Of a stretch of 64,000 nucleotides of DNA, positions 51,841 to 57,459 are shown in pieces; position 1 is the stretch's first letter, and every line of letters begins with the position of its first letter. Both the position numbers and the translations under genes were made by a program. The stretch is from Spirochaetia bacterium. Lineage in GTDB: Bacteria; Spirochaetota; Spirochaetia; CAKZLE01. The stretch covers positions 3,904,001 through 3,968,000 of the forward strand of contig OY782041.1 of NCBI GenBank assembly GCA_963677595.1. The letters are read 5' to 3'. Under the pieces are notes generated by a model. The model saw only the letters and a program-made list of their open reading frames with translations. It ran no database searches and had not been told where the DNA came from.

Positions 51841-52635
51841 ATGCAGATGGGACAGGTGATCATCACGGGGGCATCGAGGGGGATCGGGCGGGTGACTGCC
51901 CGGCAGTTCGCAGCTGCGGGGTATGAGGTAGTGGGTACGTCGAGAAACCCGCAGGGACTCGATACGGCGGGAGATCCCCCTGGACTGACCTACGACCTCC
52001 TCGACCTCTGCGACCCCGCCTCCATCGAGGCGTTCTGCACGCGCCACCCGGAGACTGACATCCTCATCCATAATGCGGGCATCTCACAGATAGGTGCTGC
52101 GGAGGACTTTGCCGACGAGACGATCGAGGAGCTCTACCAGACGAACCTGTTCGGGATCATGAGGCTCAACAGGTTCTACATCGGGAAGATGCGTCAACGG
52201 GGTTCAGGAAAGATCATCCACGTCAGTTCCCTTGCAGCCTTCACGCCGGTCCCCTTCTCCTCGGTATACGCATCTTCGAAGGCCGGCCTGGTCGCCTACT
52301 CCTCCGCCCTGCGCAGCGAGCTCCACCAGTACGGGATATGGGTCACGACGGTATTCTTCGATTTCGTGAAGACCACCCTCCCGCAGCTGGAAAATATACC
52401 GGAGGGGTCTGCGTATGCTCTTCAGGTGAGAAGGGCCAAACGTCAGCGGGACAGGAGTATCGAGGAGGGTATGCATGCAGACAGGGTCGCACAGGCCATA
52501 TTCCGTACTGCAGGACGGCGGAAGCCGCCTATCCTTCTCCCCATCGGGGGAAGGACACGGTTCATGTACCTGGTGAGCCGTCTGCTGCCTCCCGGCATCG
52601 TGGAGCGGCTTATACGCCTACGGTATGAACTCTGA
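51841..52635 (+). CDS. Short-chain dehydrogenase/reductase (SDR)
   Basis: TGASRGIG, NAG, SS, YASSK. Confidence 0.9.
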   Translation: MQMGQVIITGASRGIGRVTARQFAAAGYEVVGTSRNPQGLDTAGDPPGLTYDLLDLCDPASIEAFCTRHPETDILIHNAGISQIGAAEDFADETIEELYQTNLFGIMRLNRFYIGKMRQRGSGKIIHVSSLAAFTPVPFSSVYASSKAGLVAYSSALRSELHQYGIWVTTVFFDFVKTTLPQLENIPEGSAYALQVRRAKRQRDRSIEEGMHADRVAQAIFRTAGRRKPPILLPIGGRTRFMYLVSRLLPPGIVERLIRLRYEL

Positions 52636-55600
52636 GAGCGGGTTCTCGAGTGCTTCGGGTTCCTTGCTGAGTTCGAGCGGCACGATCTTGTTCATCTCTT
52701 CGACGATCCCTGAGGTATGTTCCCCGAAATCGAACATATTGAGGAGTTTCCTGAACATCGGGCGCACGAAATGGCGCAGCTGGTTGCTGTCCTTCTCGTA
52801 GGTCGTCTTGCTGTGGAGCACGAGGACGGTCACAGGGTCCGGGGACCGGAACATGCCGACCTCCTCGAACCCGAACTTCTTGTAGAGCTTGATCGTCTTC
52901 TTGTCATTCTGGAATACATCGATGATGACGTCCTCGACCCCGAGGTACCGCGAGAAGAGGAATACCAGGATGATCAACCCGATGGACACAGAGGTATTGC
53001 GCATCTCGGGCAGGACTGCCAGACGCAGGATCTCGGAACACTTCCTCCTCGATTTCAGCACTGACTCGATATCGAAGTTCTTGGCGATGGGCATCGGCCA
53101 GACATGTTCGGAAGTCAGCAGGGAGACCGTACCGACCGGCTGGATACCCTGGTATGCCAGGATATGGACGGCTTTCTCGTCGATCTCACGGTGGATCGAT
53201 TCCTCAAGGTAGCCCTTCTCGCCAACGAGCACCTTTCGCTGGATATAGAAGACATCATTGAGCCCGGTCGAATCGGTGACGAGGGTGAACGATATATTCT
53301 TCTTCTCATCCTCGTTGATCGGGAAGATCACGATGAATTCCGCTCCCTGCCCCTCTTCGCTCTTCACCCGTATCCTGCCGTCCATGCTGTCAACGATCTT
53401 GTAGCAGTTGGACAGCCCGAGGCCTGTCCCCTTCCCGGGAGCCTTCGTCGTGAAGAACGGCGTGAAGATCTGGTTGATGTCCTTGGAAGAGATCCCCGCA
53501 CCGGTATCCTTGATCGACACGTGGACGAAGCCGTTGACGACCCGGCAGTGCAGGGTCAGCGTCCCCTTCCCGTCCATTGCCTGCATGGCATTGACGATAA
53601 GGTTGAGGAAGAGCTGCTGCAGCTCGCTCTCGTTCGCCTCGATGGTGGGTAGGGCCTGGTAGCTCCGTTCCACCTTGATGTTCTTCGACTCATTACCACG
53701 GGAAGCGAGACGCAGGGAGAACTCGAGGATCCGCACGATGTCGACGGCCTGTTTCTCACGCTCCTCCTTCCTGGTATACACGGACAGTTCCCTGATGACA
53801 TCCGCAGCGGTCTTGGAGTATGAGATGATATCCTCTACATACTCCTTGATGGGAGAATCTTCTTCTATCTCAGACAACATGATCTCTCCAGTACCAAGGA
53901 TCCCGGCCAGGGGGTTGTTCAGTTCATGAGCGATGCCGGCAGCGAGGGTACCGATGCCTGCCATCTTCTCAGTCCTGACCAGTTCCTGCTGCAGGTTCTT
54001 ATTCTCAGTTACGTCATTGATGATCTCTATGAACTGTCCCTTTGAGTTCTTCGGGACCCGGATCGTATGGAATTGGAATGAATAGGTGGCATCCCCCACA
54101 TCAGCCTCGGAGACCTGCATCGCACCGGAGTGGAGACAGTCGAGGGCTTTGCAGAATGAACAGGGCCTGTTCCGGTCAAAGAGGACCCGGTAGCACTTGC
54201 GCCCGATGAGCTCCTCCCTGTTCTTACCGACGAAACCCGTGGTAGCACTGTTGACCTCACGGACCGTGTAGTCGATATCGATCATGCATACCGGGGATGC
54301 GATCCCGTTGAAGATCGCTTCGAGCTTGTTGTTGCTCATGATGAGTTCATGGCCCTGGTTGCGCAGCTGCTCGAACGAGAGCGCATTCTTCAGGGAGAGG
54401 GAGCACTGGGCAGCAAGGATCTCCAGGGCATCGAGCTCGATCTTGGAGATGATCATCTTGACCGGGTCGAACCCGATGAAGATGTAGCCCGCGATGCTCT
54501 TCCTGAAGATGAGCGGGATCACGACATCCGCATCGGGCAGCTTGGCACTGGTCATGAACCGCGGCTCATCCGGTTTTGCATAGAGGATGGAGCTTATATT
54601 CTCCTTCTGGAAGTTCTCGAGGTGGCGCTTCACGGAATCGGTGAAGTTGAACCGCACCTCGGAACCGATCTTCAGGTTCGTCTTGCAGTTGTTGTTCGAG
54701 ATCAGCTTGAAGTGGTCCTGCGTGTCCTTGAGGTCCTTGACGACGAAGAGGACCCAGTCGGTCTGGGAACCGATCTTGAGGGTCTCAACGACCTCATCCC
54801 CGAGTTCGGTGAGGTCCACGATGGTCGTGAGCCGCTGGCTCAGCCCCTTGATCGTCGCCTGGTAGGGGTGCCGCTTCGGGATGATGATCTTGTCGATCAT
54901 GTAGGAGATCAGGTTTCGTATCGGGTGGATCACGATGACCGTGACCAGTCCGAGGATGAAGGAGAGCTGTATGGTATTGAACGGGGCGAAGTCCTTGTTG
55001 AAGATCTGGACGATGTAGAAGATGACGAAGTAGGCGATCGCCGCGAAGATCACGAGGATCGTCGAGAACATGATGCTCAAGCCGATGCGGGAGTAGTTGA
55101 TCAGTTTGAACTTATAGATCGTGTAGAAGAGCAGGAAGGCATTGATCGTCGCCGCGAAGATATCGATGGGATACCTGCCGAGCACAGGGTTGACGTTGAG
55201 GAAGATACCGACGAGCATGATGATCACACCGATGAGCGGGAGATAGATATCCTTCCCGTAATGGATGCTGCTCTTCGACCGCTTCCCGATGAAGAGGATC
55301 AGCAGGATGAGGATCAGGTAGATATAGTCGATGGAGTACGCGATGTATACGCCGCTTCCCAGGGTATAGTGGAAGACGTTCATCTCATCGAACCATGCCG
55401 CGGAGACGACCCTCCCGGTCAGGTTCAAATACCCGAGCAGGAAGATGATCAGGTAGCTGTAATAGACGAATATACGGATCGGGCGGACCTTGATCTCCAT
55501 GATGTCGAGTATGAAGTGCATCAGCGGGAAGGGTGCTGACAGGAGGCCGAGGAGCATCACCTTGTTCCAGAGCAGCGGTGTGTAGATCGAACTGTTGAGG

Positions 55601-55764
55601 TGCATCATCAAGGAGCCGAAACTCCATACTACGATGAAACACATGTAGAGCTGGAAGGACCAGTAGAATCGATCCTTCTTATACTGCAGGAAACCGAACG
55701 CAGCAAAGAAGACATAGAGTATGAAAGATATAGCAGGTATGATGGTCGACACATCAATAATCAT
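52618..55764 (-). CDS. Multi-TM sensor histidine kinase (membrane-GAF-PAS-HisKA-HATPase) with a C-terminal FeeM/LuxI-like GNAT acyltransferase domain
   Basis: About 290 aa polytopic N-terminus; IPLIFRKSIAGYI..LEILAAQ GAF; CYRVL..RPC..C PAS; AHELNNPL H-box; NLIVNA, DTGAG, FTPFFTTK, GTGLGL; then VFYIQRKVLVGEKGY...HILAY...PVGTV...EILRLAVLPEMR...LYKKFGF. Confidence 0.9.
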   Translation of the reverse strand: MIIDVSTIIPAISFILYVFFAAFGFLQYKKDRFYWSFQLYMCFIVVWSFGSLMMHLNSSIYTPLLWNKVMLLGLLSAPFPLMHFILDIMEIKVRPIRIFVYYSYLIIFLLGYLNLTGRVVSAAWFDEMNVFHYTLGSGVYIAYSIDYIYLILILLILFIGKRSKSSIHYGKDIYLPLIGVIIMLVGIFLNVNPVLGRYPIDIFAATINAFLLFYTIYKFKLINYSRIGLSIMFSTILVIFAAIAYFVIFYIVQIFNKDFAPFNTIQLSFILGLVTVIVIHPIRNLISYMIDKIIIPKRHPYQATIKGLSQRLTTIVDLTELGDEVVETLKIGSQTDWVLFVVKDLKDTQDHFKLISNNNCKTNLKIGSEVRFNFTDSVKRHLENFQKENISSILYAKPDEPRFMTSAKLPDADVVIPLIFRKSIAGYIFIGFDPVKMIISKIELDALEILAAQCSLSLKNALSFEQLRNQGHELIMSNNKLEAIFNGIASPVCMIDIDYTVREVNSATTGFVGKNREELIGRKCYRVLFDRNRPCSFCKALDCLHSGAMQVSEADVGDATYSFQFHTIRVPKNSKGQFIEIINDVTENKNLQQELVRTEKMAGIGTLAAGIAHELNNPLAGILGTGEIMLSEIEEDSPIKEYVEDIISYSKTAADVIRELSVYTRKEEREKQAVDIVRILEFSLRLASRGNESKNIKVERSYQALPTIEANESELQQLFLNLIVNAMQAMDGKGTLTLHCRVVNGFVHVSIKDTGAGISSKDINQIFTPFFTTKAPGKGTGLGLSNCYKIVDSMDGRIRVKSEEGQGAEFIVIFPINEDEKKNISFTLVTDSTGLNDVFYIQRKVLVGEKGYLEESIHREIDEKAVHILAYQGIQPVGTVSLLTSEHVWPMPIAKNFDIESVLKSRRKCSEILRLAVLPEMRNTSVSIGLIILVFLFSRYLGVEDVIIDVFQNDKKTIKLYKKFGFEEVGMFRSPDPVTVLVLHSKTTYEKDSNQLRHFVRPMFRKLLNMFDFGEHTSGIVEEMNKIVPLELSKEPEALENPLSEFIP

Positions 55765-55823
55765 GCAGGTTCCTTTTATGTACTTTTCAATTGTGCCTGT
55801 TCATACTATTATAAAGATAAATT

Positions 55824-56387
55824 ATGGAATTTATCAATTTAATTCTGATTGGAACAGCAGGGTACATCCTGGTCTGTATATATGACCTCTCTCAATTATA
55901 CAGGAAAACTCTCCTCCGGTATATGAGTTCCACAGGTTTCATACTCACTTCAGTACCCTATATCATACTACTCTCCAATCGCGATTTTGTCCAGCTGACT
56001 ATTTCACATGTGATCCTGTTCACATTTCTGGCTATTCTAACCGGCCTGCTCATCTATTCCGTACTGATCGAGATCCCTCTCTATTACCATCGTATGAAGG
56101 GCCGTGAGAGCTCCCCAGGCAGTGCCCCGCCGCAACTCTATCGCCAGGGAACCTATGGATTCTCTCGACATCCGGGGTTTATCTGGTATACTGGAATCAA
56201 CAGCCTGTTCATCATCCTGGATACCCGATATCTCATGCTCATGGTGATATTGACAATATGCAATCTTTTATTGATTATAGTAGAAGATATTCATATCTTT
56301 CCAAGACTTTTTCCAGGCTATGAAGCATATAAAGAATCGGTCCCATTCATTCTGTCAGTTGGGATACGAAATAAAAGGGAGTCCTAG
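55824..56387 (+). CDS. ICMT/PEMT-family integral membrane methyltransferase-like protein
   Basis: Several TM segments, LYRQGTYGFSRHPG, ED..F..LFPGYEAYKESVP C-terminal pattern. Confidence 0.7.
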   Translation: MEFINLILIGTAGYILVCIYDLSQLYRKTLLRYMSSTGFILTSVPYIILLSNRDFVQLTISHVILFTFLAILTGLLIYSVLIEIPLYYHRMKGRESSPGSAPPQLYRQGTYGFSRHPGFIWYTGINSLFIILDTRYLMLMVILTICNLLLIIVEDIHIFPRLFPGYEAYKESVPFILSVGIRNKRES

Positions 56388-56390
56388 AAA

Positions 56391-57419
56391 GTGAACCAGC
56401 ACCATATAATCACGACTGACGACGATCCTGCTATCAGAAAGGTTCTGGAACTGATCCTGAAGAAGGCAGATTACAAGGTGACCAAATGCACTAACGGCGA
56501 TGAGCTCATCAGCCAGCTGAAGATCGACCATGCTTCGGTAGACCTGGTGATCCTCGACATCAAGATGCCCGGGAAGTCAGGGTTCGAGGTCCTGGAGATC
56601 ATCCACTCCCGCTACCCTGACCTCCCGATCATCATGATGACGGCATTCAGCGACCTCGAGACGGGCATGAAGGCCATCAGGGAGGGGGCTGCTGACTTCC
56701 TCTCGAAGCCGGTGCACAAGGCTGAGCTCCTCGACTGTGTCGAGCGGGTGCTCACCAAGTCGAAGGAACAGAAGGCAAAATCACACGCCTTCCACATCAA
56801 CTCCAACTACCAGAAAGAGCTCGAGACGAAACTCGATGATGCCTATATGACCATCATGAAGACCACGATGGCAACGATAGAGGCATTGTCGGAGACCATC
56901 GAGCAGAAGGATGTCTACACGAAGGGCCACTGCAGCCGGGTACGTTCCCTCTCGCTCAAGATAGCGGAATACCTCCCGCTCTCCTCCGATGATCTGCTCA
57001 TCCTCGAAGCCGGAGCCCTGCTCCACGACATCGGGAAGATCGGTATCTCCGAACAGATCCTCAACAAGAAGTCAACGCTCACCGATGAGGAGTTTGAGAC
57101 GATCAGGATGCACCCAGAGGCCGGGGCGAAGATCGTGCAGTACATCGACCTCTTCAAGCCCTATCTCCCGATCATCAGGAACCACCATGAGCGGTATGAC
57201 GGGACGGGCTATCCCGACGGGCTCAAGGGAGAGGAGATCCCCCTCCTGGTGCGTATCGTGACCTTGACCGACGCCTTTGATGCCATGACGAGCAACCGCC
57301 CCTACCGGGACGCCCTTCCCAAGCTCTTTGCCGTGGAGGAGCTCAAGCTCAACAGGGGCTCTCAGTTCGACCCCCACCTTGTCGATATCTTCATCGATCA
57401 TGAGATCTACGAGCTGTAG
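56391..57419 (+). CDS. Response regulator with HD-GYP phosphodiesterase output (RpfG-like)
   Basis: Receiver domain DDD, LDIKMPG, MTA, KP; HD-GYP motifs YTKGH, LHDIGKIG, HHERYDGTGYP, DAFDAMTSNRPYR. Confidence 0.95.
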   Translation: MNQHHIITTDDDPAIRKVLELILKKADYKVTKCTNGDELISQLKIDHASVDLVILDIKMPGKSGFEVLEIIHSRYPDLPIIMMTAFSDLETGMKAIREGAADFLSKPVHKAELLDCVERVLTKSKEQKAKSHAFHINSNYQKELETKLDDAYMTIMKTTMATIEALSETIEQKDVYTKGHCSRVRSLSLKIAEYLPLSSDDLLILEAGALLHDIGKIGISEQILNKKSTLTDEEFETIRMHPEAGAKIVQYIDLFKPYLPIIRNHHERYDGTGYPDGLKGEEIPLLVRIVTLTDAFDAMTSNRPYRDALPKLFAVEELKLNRGSQFDPHLVDIFIDHEIYEL

Positions 57420-57431
57420 GTCAGGGGCATG

Positions 57432-57459
57432 AAAAAAGCCGACTGTGGGGACAGTCGGC
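57432..57459 (-). terminator. Intrinsic terminator of ygeW, between convergent genes
   Basis: GCCGACTGT-GGGG-ACAGTCGGC preceded by A6 on the + strand. Confidence 0.75.

Follow-up and report, generated by a model that had tools for sequence, protein, structure and literature searches.

In a stretch of 64,000 nucleotides from a Spirochaetia bacterium (contig OY782041.1, positions 3,904,001 to 3,968,000 of the forward strand; the whole stretch is called the window below), we describe a three-gene cassette in which a membrane sensor histidine kinase continues in frame into a FeeM-like acyltransferase domain and faces the genes for an ICMT/PEMT-like membrane protein and for a response regulator with receiver (REC) and HD-GYP domains. 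We propose, with a probability of roughly one half, that this cassette makes a probably methylated N-acyl amino acid that tunes its own kinase and the breakdown of cyclic di-GMP (c-di-GMP); the kinase-FeeM cassette likely constitutes a hitherto undescribed system that both produces and detects a lipid signal of its own. The fusion gene (1048 amino acids (aa); 52618..55764, minus strand; open reading frame (ORF) call and Pfam) encodes, in order, a 7TM domain, two extra predicted transmembrane (TM) helices, GAF, PAS, HisKA, HATPase and the FeeM-like GNAT domain. Head-to-head with it, 59 bp apart, lies the gene for the divergent ICMT/PEMT-like membrane protein (187 aa; 55824..56387, plus strand; ICMT/PEMT/sterol-reductase fold), and the REC-HD-GYP gene (342 aa; 56391..57419, plus strand; Pfam and residue alignment) begins with GTG 3 nt beyond the ICMT-like stop codon. 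The ORF layout, the 59-bp and 3-nt spacings and the motifs quoted in an earlier reading of the same letters (the original prediction) were all present in the sequence or its translation, as was the claimed in-frame continuation of the kinase past its HATPase domain, with a Pfam FeeM match at residues 851-978 and no receiver domain.

The occurrence of the fusion was examined by a search with residues 800-1048 among 1458 candidate proteins of 576-1834 aa. The fusion was found in 93 proteins, the window's own and 92 others, all of which list FeeM, HisKA and HATPase. The named carriers are mostly Sphaerochaeta or Spirochaetia and include the cultured Sphaerochaeta pleomorpha Grapes and Sphaerochaeta sp. 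PS. Strong matches were present in 15 of 60 relatives, with two more genomes giving weak matches only, and the fusion was present in 11 of 401 genomes of the phylum (the window's own genome, G000, included). A profile search of 1.84 billion representatives yielded 11 proteins at E 1e-30, and the five top new matches, when scanned for domains, were all kinase fusions; at lower scores than the fusions and fusion fragments followed free-standing FeeM-like proteins (about 190 aa) and a single protein each of the REC-FeeM and PilZ-FeeM types (40 of 150 scanned). The kinase-GNAT architecture is thus conserved and not unique to this assembly. An assembly artefact was rejected on the strength of the 93 proteins and of a contig from a public run, possibly that of the source sample, which covers 52597-54297 without a gap. 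Among the relatives of the GNAT domain, five (P0105, P0113, P0146, P0147 and P0196) are fused to REC, PilZ, a piece of HMG-CoA reductase, a class I methyltransferase or ThiF, and P0147 carries the acyltransferase-like domain and a methyltransferase in a single chain.

The FeeM-like GNAT domain spans aa 819-1048 (52621..53310, minus strand; Pfam, predicted structure and alignment). It matched FeeM (PF21926) with 44.1 bits in the full protein and 47.4 bits as the domain alone, against a cut-off of 27, and FeeM was the best-scoring GNAT family in Pfam; the FeeM-type resemblance proposed earlier therefore held, and the matches were not confined to generic acetyltransferases. Glu911, Arg914, Arg922, Asp949 and Tyr961 were invariant in 93/93 fusion proteins. 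In a wide profile alignment, the putative catalytic Glu911 was aligned with the Glu of the E-W-S-R motif of BjaI, an acyl-homoserine lactone (AHL) synthase. The active-site Glu of N-acyl amino acid synthases is Glu95 in FeeM and Glu103 in Nas354, according to the available text of PMC4897644, and from the motif we infer that Glu911 corresponds to FeeM Glu95. The R-x-x-G-x-G loop was absent in all 93 fusion proteins, and likewise in 18/18 proteins of a second alignment. Loss of this loop (Q/R-x-x-G-x-G/A) has been described for carrier-protein-dependent GNATs (PMC11685415, consulted in part), although it does not settle whether acyl carrier protein (ACP) or coenzyme A (CoA) would bring the acyl group, since the CoA-dependent BjaI also lacks it. 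The fused GNAT domains formed a clade of their own (support 100), and pN, the nonsynonymous divergence, was about 0.09 at a saturated synonymous pS of about 0.85 in comparison with two genes of the same genus. Judged from the sequences, the GNAT domain is under strong conservation and the fusion is old and selected. The fusion holds the only FeeM match in the genome, which has one ACP.

The structural model of the GNAT domain was predicted with confidence (predicted local distance difference test, pLDDT, 92). A VIA fold search placed FeeM (2g0b) first (Z 16.6, root-mean-square deviation (rmsd) 2.7, 173 aligned), tied with YjcF (Z 16.3, rmsd 1.7, 137 aligned), and next the LuxI-family proteins RpaI, TofI and LasI at Z 14.9-13.7 (RpaI Z 14.9 over 184). 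With the wide profile, BjaI was aligned in one piece, including the insertion ahead of the E-x-S-R strand, while SACOL1063 and YjcF were aligned in two pieces, with about 20 extra residues in the GNAT domain. The insertion continuous with BjaI, together with the missing R-x-x-G-x-G loop, suggests the FeeM/LuxI branch. The features of a generic YjcF/ElaA-type acetyl-CoA GNAT were not found: the canonical motif-A loop is absent and the domain, with its roughly 20 extra residues, is not of the compact 140-150 aa kind. Membership of the LuxI family was rejected, as PF00765 gave no match in Pfam at E 0.1. The description "autoinducer-synthase-like" in the original prediction is hence right for the fold and wrong for the LuxI family.

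The kinase portion starts with a HisKA_7TM membrane input domain at aa 12-223 (55096..55731, minus strand; Pfam 38.8 bits, cut-off 28.6), and hydropathy suggested two further TM helices at aa 236-254 and 264-282. A GAF domain at about aa 316-457 (54394..54819, minus strand) has limits transferred from the homologues L030 and L053 and is not among the window's own Pfam matches, and a PAS domain was matched by Pfam at aa 480-589 (53998..54327, minus strand). The original prediction left out this 7TM-GAF-PAS input portion, through which the wider family was reached. Cys524, Cys535 and Cys538 of the PAS domain were invariant in 68/68 aligned homologues; they belong to a C-x10-C-x2-C arrangement at aa 524-545 (window 54130-54195, minus strand), and His545 was present in 65 of the 68. 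This Cys/His set may serve metal binding or redox sensing. The catalytic core consists of HisKA (606-668, with His613) and HATPase_c (711-816, with Asn725 and Asp753) in 53317..53949 on the minus strand (Pfam). The H, N, G1, F and G2 boxes of a class I histidine kinase are all present, and His613, Asn725 and Asp753 were invariant in 93/93 fusion proteins, whose mean identity to the query was 60% over the 7TM domain and 68% over both the GNAT domain and the ATPase.

Gene linkage was assessed in 22 genome loci chosen by the GNAT domain (L001, L002, L024-L035 and L047-L054), leaving out the truncated L055 and a 2-kb contig of G005. A REC-HD-GYP gene faced the kinase in 21 of these and the ICMT-like gene was present in 17, so the three-gene synteny proposed earlier was recovered and the homologues proved to be linked. 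Both partner genes were also present in L173 and L175, which were found via the 7TM family. In one locus (L029:7209-10916) the kinase and the ICMT-like gene are kept and no REC-HD-GYP gene is in place. All 11 fusion genomes among the 401 contain a member of the ICMT-like family, located elsewhere in the genome in five; these five, which lack the gene in cis, carry a GH3-type ICMT-like copy (L040-L044) with no adjacent GH3 gene, and four of them gave no GH3 match (completeness 64-97%). The copies in L040-L044 may function in trans or may be relics.

The ICMT-like protein of the window scored 13.5 bits against Pfam PEMT, below the cut-off of 25; at the family level, 9 of 15 orthologues matched ICMT at E up to 0.1, four GH3-type relatives lay above the PEMT cut-off, and the family profile matched Ma-ICMT at E 9e-4. 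The fold matches comprised sterol reductase (Z 10.8), ICMT (8.4 and 8.1) and steroid 5-alpha-reductase (7.6). A narrow profile found no match among PDB sequences, and Foldseek gave none at E 0.001. G109, Y111, R115, H116 and P117 (G-x-Y-x3-R-H-P) were invariant in 41/41 rows, the Y-x-x-Y tail was also found, and the acidic pair E154-D155 was kept in 25/25 FeeM-linked rows, with Q-D/E in GH3-linked rows. We take the G-x-Y-x3-R-H-P motif, the acidic pair and the Y-x-x-Y tail to be the cofactor-binding core of ICMT/PEMT methyltransferases. An ICMT proper, the prenylcysteine carboxyl methyltransferase, was rejected because the Arg of the R-x-x-x-E-E helix, which presumably binds the carboxylate in ICMT, is absent. 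Judged from these results, the membrane protein, given earlier as ICMT/PEMT-like and as a membrane methyltransferase, is at most a likely methyltransferase.

The REC-HD-GYP protein retains the phosphoacceptor Asp56, the HD residues, HHE..GYP and RPYR (RxxR). H180, H212, D213 and H241 were present in 32/32 rows, and H265, H266, D294, R303 and R306 in all 31 covered rows. The published signature of c-di-GMP-type HD-GYP domains, as given in the accessible part of 10.1101/600031, comprises the metal ligands, GYP and Rxx(R/K), and the protein is predicted to degrade c-di-GMP; specificity for cGAMP is unlikely, as the motif is RxxR. Since the genome holds 12 HD_5 and 34 GGDEF matches, the pairing of this kinase with this regulator rests on gene linkage.

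The ICMT-like family led to a second type of cassette. It was present in 25 of the 401 genomes, 16 of them at 80 bits or more, and those 16 comprised the 11 fusion genomes, a genome whose sensor is truncated by the end of its contig, and four with the ICMT-like gene ahead of genes for a GH3 ligase and for a multi-TM GAF-PAS kinase that has no GNAT domain. GH3 ligases and FeeM-type GNATs are unrelated, and both form acyl-amino acid amides. OlsH, a GH3 enzyme of bacterial origin, uses a fatty acid and ATP to form N-acyl ornithine, and its operon also encodes the methyltransferase OlsG (PMC12493201 and PMC12971839, each consulted in part). A metagenome scan took the best 80 of 183 ICMT-like loci with a pattern that would miss the window's own subgroup, and is therefore no census; 54 loci had GH3, 9 a FeeM kinase, none both and 17 neither (13 of the 17 on pieces shorter than 3.3 kb), and at 90% identity (n = 67) the counts were 46, 7 and 14 for GH3, FeeM and neither. 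The sensor ended in GGDEF-HD-GYP in three of four GH3-linked cases checked, and c-di-GMP output thus recurs, as some GH3-linked sensors are 7TM-GAF-GGDEF-HD-GYP proteins. Such one-component sensors adjoin GH3 and ICMT-like genes at L070:9154-11673, L099:1853-4885 and L128:3358-5811. The GH3 profile matched 5 of the 401 genomes, only one of which (G210) also has the fusion; its GH3 gene (L188:5977-7592) is split into two ORFs that overlap, stands without a neighbouring sensor or methyltransferase and is possibly a relic. No GH3 match was found in the window.

The sensors of the two cassette types are related. With the FeeM-linked 7TM profile (28 domains), GH3-linked sensors (n = 31) scored 43-162 bits and other spirochaete HisKA_7TM domains (n = 49) -6 to 42, a gap that is partly circular, because the GH3 sensors had been chosen by a mixed FeeM/GH3 profile. 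Trees united the FeeM- and GH3-linked 7TM sensors against other HisKA_7TM domains with support of 84 (110 rows) and 100/99 (41 rows), and the ICMT-like proteins divided by partner type with support of 100 (95 rows) and 100/100 (41 rows). The nesting of FeeM sensors within GH3 sensors, given by a quick tree (95), was not retained, as the approximately unbiased test did not reject a single GH3 clade (p 0.54 with 37 rows; p 0.78 with 110 rows, better constrained tree). In 18 other HisKA_7TM loci of 5-10 kb, no ICMT-like, GH3 or FeeM gene lay nearby; a further 31, at 3-4 kb, were too short to be counted. The second HisKA_7TM protein of the genome (L137, G000:C1:1260497-1262146) bears GGDEF and falls outside the GH3/FeeM clade. 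Taken together, the alternation of GH3 and FeeM next to a single sensor clade and a single family of membrane enzymes suggested that the unit is best explained as defined by its product, and the presence of two unrelated enzymes for amide formation in the same slot makes a small N-acyl product more likely than protein acetylation.

In the proposed mechanism, the FeeM-like domain would join a fatty acyl group, from acyl-ACP or acyl-CoA, to an amino acid through an amide, and the ICMT-like protein would methylate the product, giving, for instance, a neutral ester or a head group that bears an N-methyl. The kinase's own 7TM domain would bind or sense this methylated product, phosphotransfer would run from His613 to Asp56 of REC, and the phosphorylated regulator would then degrade c-di-GMP; the fusion could let the state of the kinase gate synthesis, as RpfC binding gates RpfF. 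A broader proposal, which we advance tentatively, is a widespread and so far undescribed cell-cell signalling scheme across anaerobes, in which one 7TM clade would read methylated N-acyl amino acids from either a GH3 ligase or a FeeM-type GNAT, the spirochaete fusion being a single-protein make-and-sense device wired to c-di-GMP.

Several observations weigh against the proposed mechanism, in addition to the circularity of the 7TM scores. The fold ranks fail to separate FeeM from generic GNATs (16.6 against 16.3 for YjcF), and Foldseek put SACOL1063 first and FeeM next, with sequence searches of the PDB also favouring SACOL1063. For the membrane protein, sterol reductase (Z 10.8) outranked ICMT (8.4, 8.1), and the column of the Ma-ICMT Arg holds Leu or Tyr. 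The ICMT-like gene was missing in cis in 5 of the 22 loci, and linkage seen in related genomes does not count as independent support. The one GH3-methyltransferase operon that has been characterised in this context yields a membrane lipid, and the available text mentions no kinase (PMC12493201); the products of FilI barely altered FilI autophosphorylation, as far as the consulted part of PMC3991700 goes. The claim of a self-contained module that makes, modifies and senses an acyl signal and responds to it is partly supported: it gained from the FeeM match, the spread of the fusion, the linkage and the GH3 sisters, and was weakened at the membrane protein, which can be absent in cis and whose fold is tied with that of reductases.

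The same components could serve regulated aminolipid synthesis, in which a methylated N-acyl amino acid would remain part of the membrane, as a lipid with a structural or stress role, while the sensor reads another cue and controls both the enzyme and c-di-GMP. OlsH-OlsG-OlsI indeed yields a methylated ornithine lipid, and OlsG has phospholipid N-methyltransferases among its relatives (PMC12493201 and PMC12971839, in the parts available), and the GAF and Cys-bearing PAS domains could receive other inputs. We regard this account as unlikely, though as a real contender, as one 7TM clade follows the amide-forming enzyme across changes of enzyme family and output domain, as expected of a product reader, the window cassette has no second (O-)acyltransferase gene, and a synthase tied one-to-one to a kinase would be ill suited to supplying lipid in bulk. 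Regulatory roles are common among the C-terminal domains of kinases, and the GNAT domain might then be a protein acyltransferase, or a non-catalytic input that binds acyl-CoA or acyl-ACP and tunes the kinase to fatty-acid status. Generic GNATs are the top sequence and Foldseek matches, and NCBIfam gave weak RimI-type matches, in keeping with such a role; the R-x-x-G-x-G loop missing throughout the fusion proteins, the FeeM/LuxI-type insertion and the occupation of the sister-cassette slot by GH3, a small-molecule ligase, make it a rather doubtful one.

Some plant GH3 enzymes inactivate auxin by conjugation, and by analogy the sensor might detect an outside amine or acid that the enzymes inactivate by conjugation and methylation. 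The linkage of sensor and enzyme fits removal equally well, and the sequence gives no direction; the donors, however, differ between the FeeM type (acyl carrier) and GH3 (free acid and ATP) and converge on the product, not the substrate, so that we consider signal removal improbable. Most remote of all is a purine-sensing regulator of the anaerobic purine-catabolism cluster around the cassette. In the window, as in 8 of 14 class-level loci, the cassette does lie amid xanthine-dehydrogenase-like, ygeW-like, NCS2 permease or adenine deaminase genes, but no purine neighbour was found in the other six or in L047-L054, and no DNA-binding domain is present in the output protein. A single subclade of the sensor tree (99) holds the window together with the purine-linked loci, for which one ancestral insertion suffices, and purine regulation was rejected as the core role, the setting being limited to this lineage.

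The proposed make-and-sense cassette has partial counterparts among known systems. In common with FeeM and other N-acyl amino acid synthases, its GNAT domain has a Pfam match above cut-off, a top fold match (level with YjcF), an invariant strand-4 Glu and an altered CoA loop; it differs in being only 13% identical to FeeM, in sitting behind a membrane kinase core and in forming its own clade. NasP is a cAMP-binding regulatory fusion of this synthase family. Fusions of N-acyl amino acid synthases (NAS) with PilZ link the family to c-di-GMP, and a planctomycete cluster combines putative NAS genes with a methyltransferase (PMC4897644 and PMC7293339, respectively, each consulted in part). The LuxI-family AHL synthases (BjaI, RpaI, TofI and LasI) share the GNAT branch and, for BjaI, the continuous profile alignment, whereas PF00765 does not match the window protein and the cassette has no LuxR gene. 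In the Rpf system, as described in the accessible text of PMC5391125, RpfC keeps RpfF repressed by binding to it and is the activator of RpfG, an HD-GYP protein. The cassette resembles this Xanthomonas Rpf/DSF system in having a membrane kinase, a phosphodiesterase of the REC-HD-GYP kind and a sensor physically coupled to the synthase, but its kinase lacks REC and histidine phosphotransfer (HPt) domains, its input is HisKA_7TM-GAF-PAS, its putative synthase is a covalent GNAT domain with no crotonase-type (RpfF) synthase among the cassette genes, and a membrane methyltransferase-like gene is added. Membership of the Rpf/DSF system was rejected for want of a hybrid REC/HPt kinase and an RpfF-type synthase; the RpfC/RpfG logic invoked earlier survives in the pairing of a membrane kinase with REC-HD-GYP. 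FilI of Methanosaeta harundinacea is reported as a histidine kinase and acyl-signal (AHL) synthase in one polypeptide; it is, however, a CHASE4-HAMP-PAS-GAF-HisKA-HATPase protein with no GNAT listed, and it partners FilR, not an HD-GYP protein (PMC3991700, in the part available). The OlsH-OlsG-OlsI operon of Singulisphaera acidiphila likewise joins a synthase of N-acyl amino acids, of the GH3 family of the sister cassettes, to a methyltransferase, but it includes an O-acyltransferase and makes a membrane lipid, no sensor is mentioned in the available text (PMC12493201), and the window has no GH3.

No description of the kinase-FeeM architecture or of the GH3 cassette was found in the literature, in a search that reached neither most subscription journals nor supplements, where a table of domain architectures could name the fusion; the available parts of PMC6944256, PMC10304680 and PMC8895600 contained nothing on a kinase-FeeM build. 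The original prediction, which knew of no described system with such an architecture, thus agrees with the literature found, the receptor-synthase precedent FilI having different domains. Signal synthases and receptors are normally separate proteins, and here a receptor-synthase fusion is conserved. According to the accessible part of PMC4897644, it is still unclear what N-acyl amino acid synthases do physiologically in bacteria, and the fusion, together with the natural swap to an unrelated enzyme that makes the same bond, predicts a ligand class for the 7TM sensor clade. If the product is a signal, anaerobic spirochaetes and other uncultured bacteria would have a quorum-type chemistry that is new; if it proves to be a lipid, the cassette would be a new way of tying aminolipid synthesis to c-di-GMP.

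The 59-bp intergenic stretch is AT-rich and has back-to-back promoter-like boxes (55765..55837), identified by consensus match only. Before the kinase, on the minus strand, a TTGATA-18-TATAAT element agrees with 11/12 consensus positions (again by consensus match only) and overlaps the ICMT-like start, and a -10-like box 48-49 nt ahead of the kinase ATG was also seen in L001, L024, L025 and L026. Compared by eye, the stretch showed no conserved operator beyond the AT-rich -10-like boxes. Back-to-back -10-like boxes occupy window 55784-55837; the start codon (ATG) of the ICMT-like gene is some 11 nt away from its own box and has no evident ribosome-binding site, so that its mRNA may be leaderless. 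A terminator-like hairpin (57438..57459, minus strand) separates the HD-GYP gene from a convergent carbamoyltransferase (ygeW-like) gene. On the other side, a convergent gene for a short-chain dehydrogenase/reductase (SDR) oxidoreductase (51841-52635, plus strand) overlaps the 3' end of the kinase gene by 18 bp; its best NCBIfam matches, PRK06179 and KdsR, were both under cut-off, and the gene is retained only in L001, L002 and L024. The cassette is surrounded by a purine-catabolism and selenium/molybdenum-cofactor cluster (window 40341-63842), whose genes we take to be those for YqeC, XdhC, a class V aminotransferase, an AIRS-fold (SelD-like) protein, a TusA-DsrE (YedF-like) protein, adenine deaminase, an NCS2 permease, the carbamoyltransferase, an Xdh-like molybdoenzyme and an amidohydrolase.

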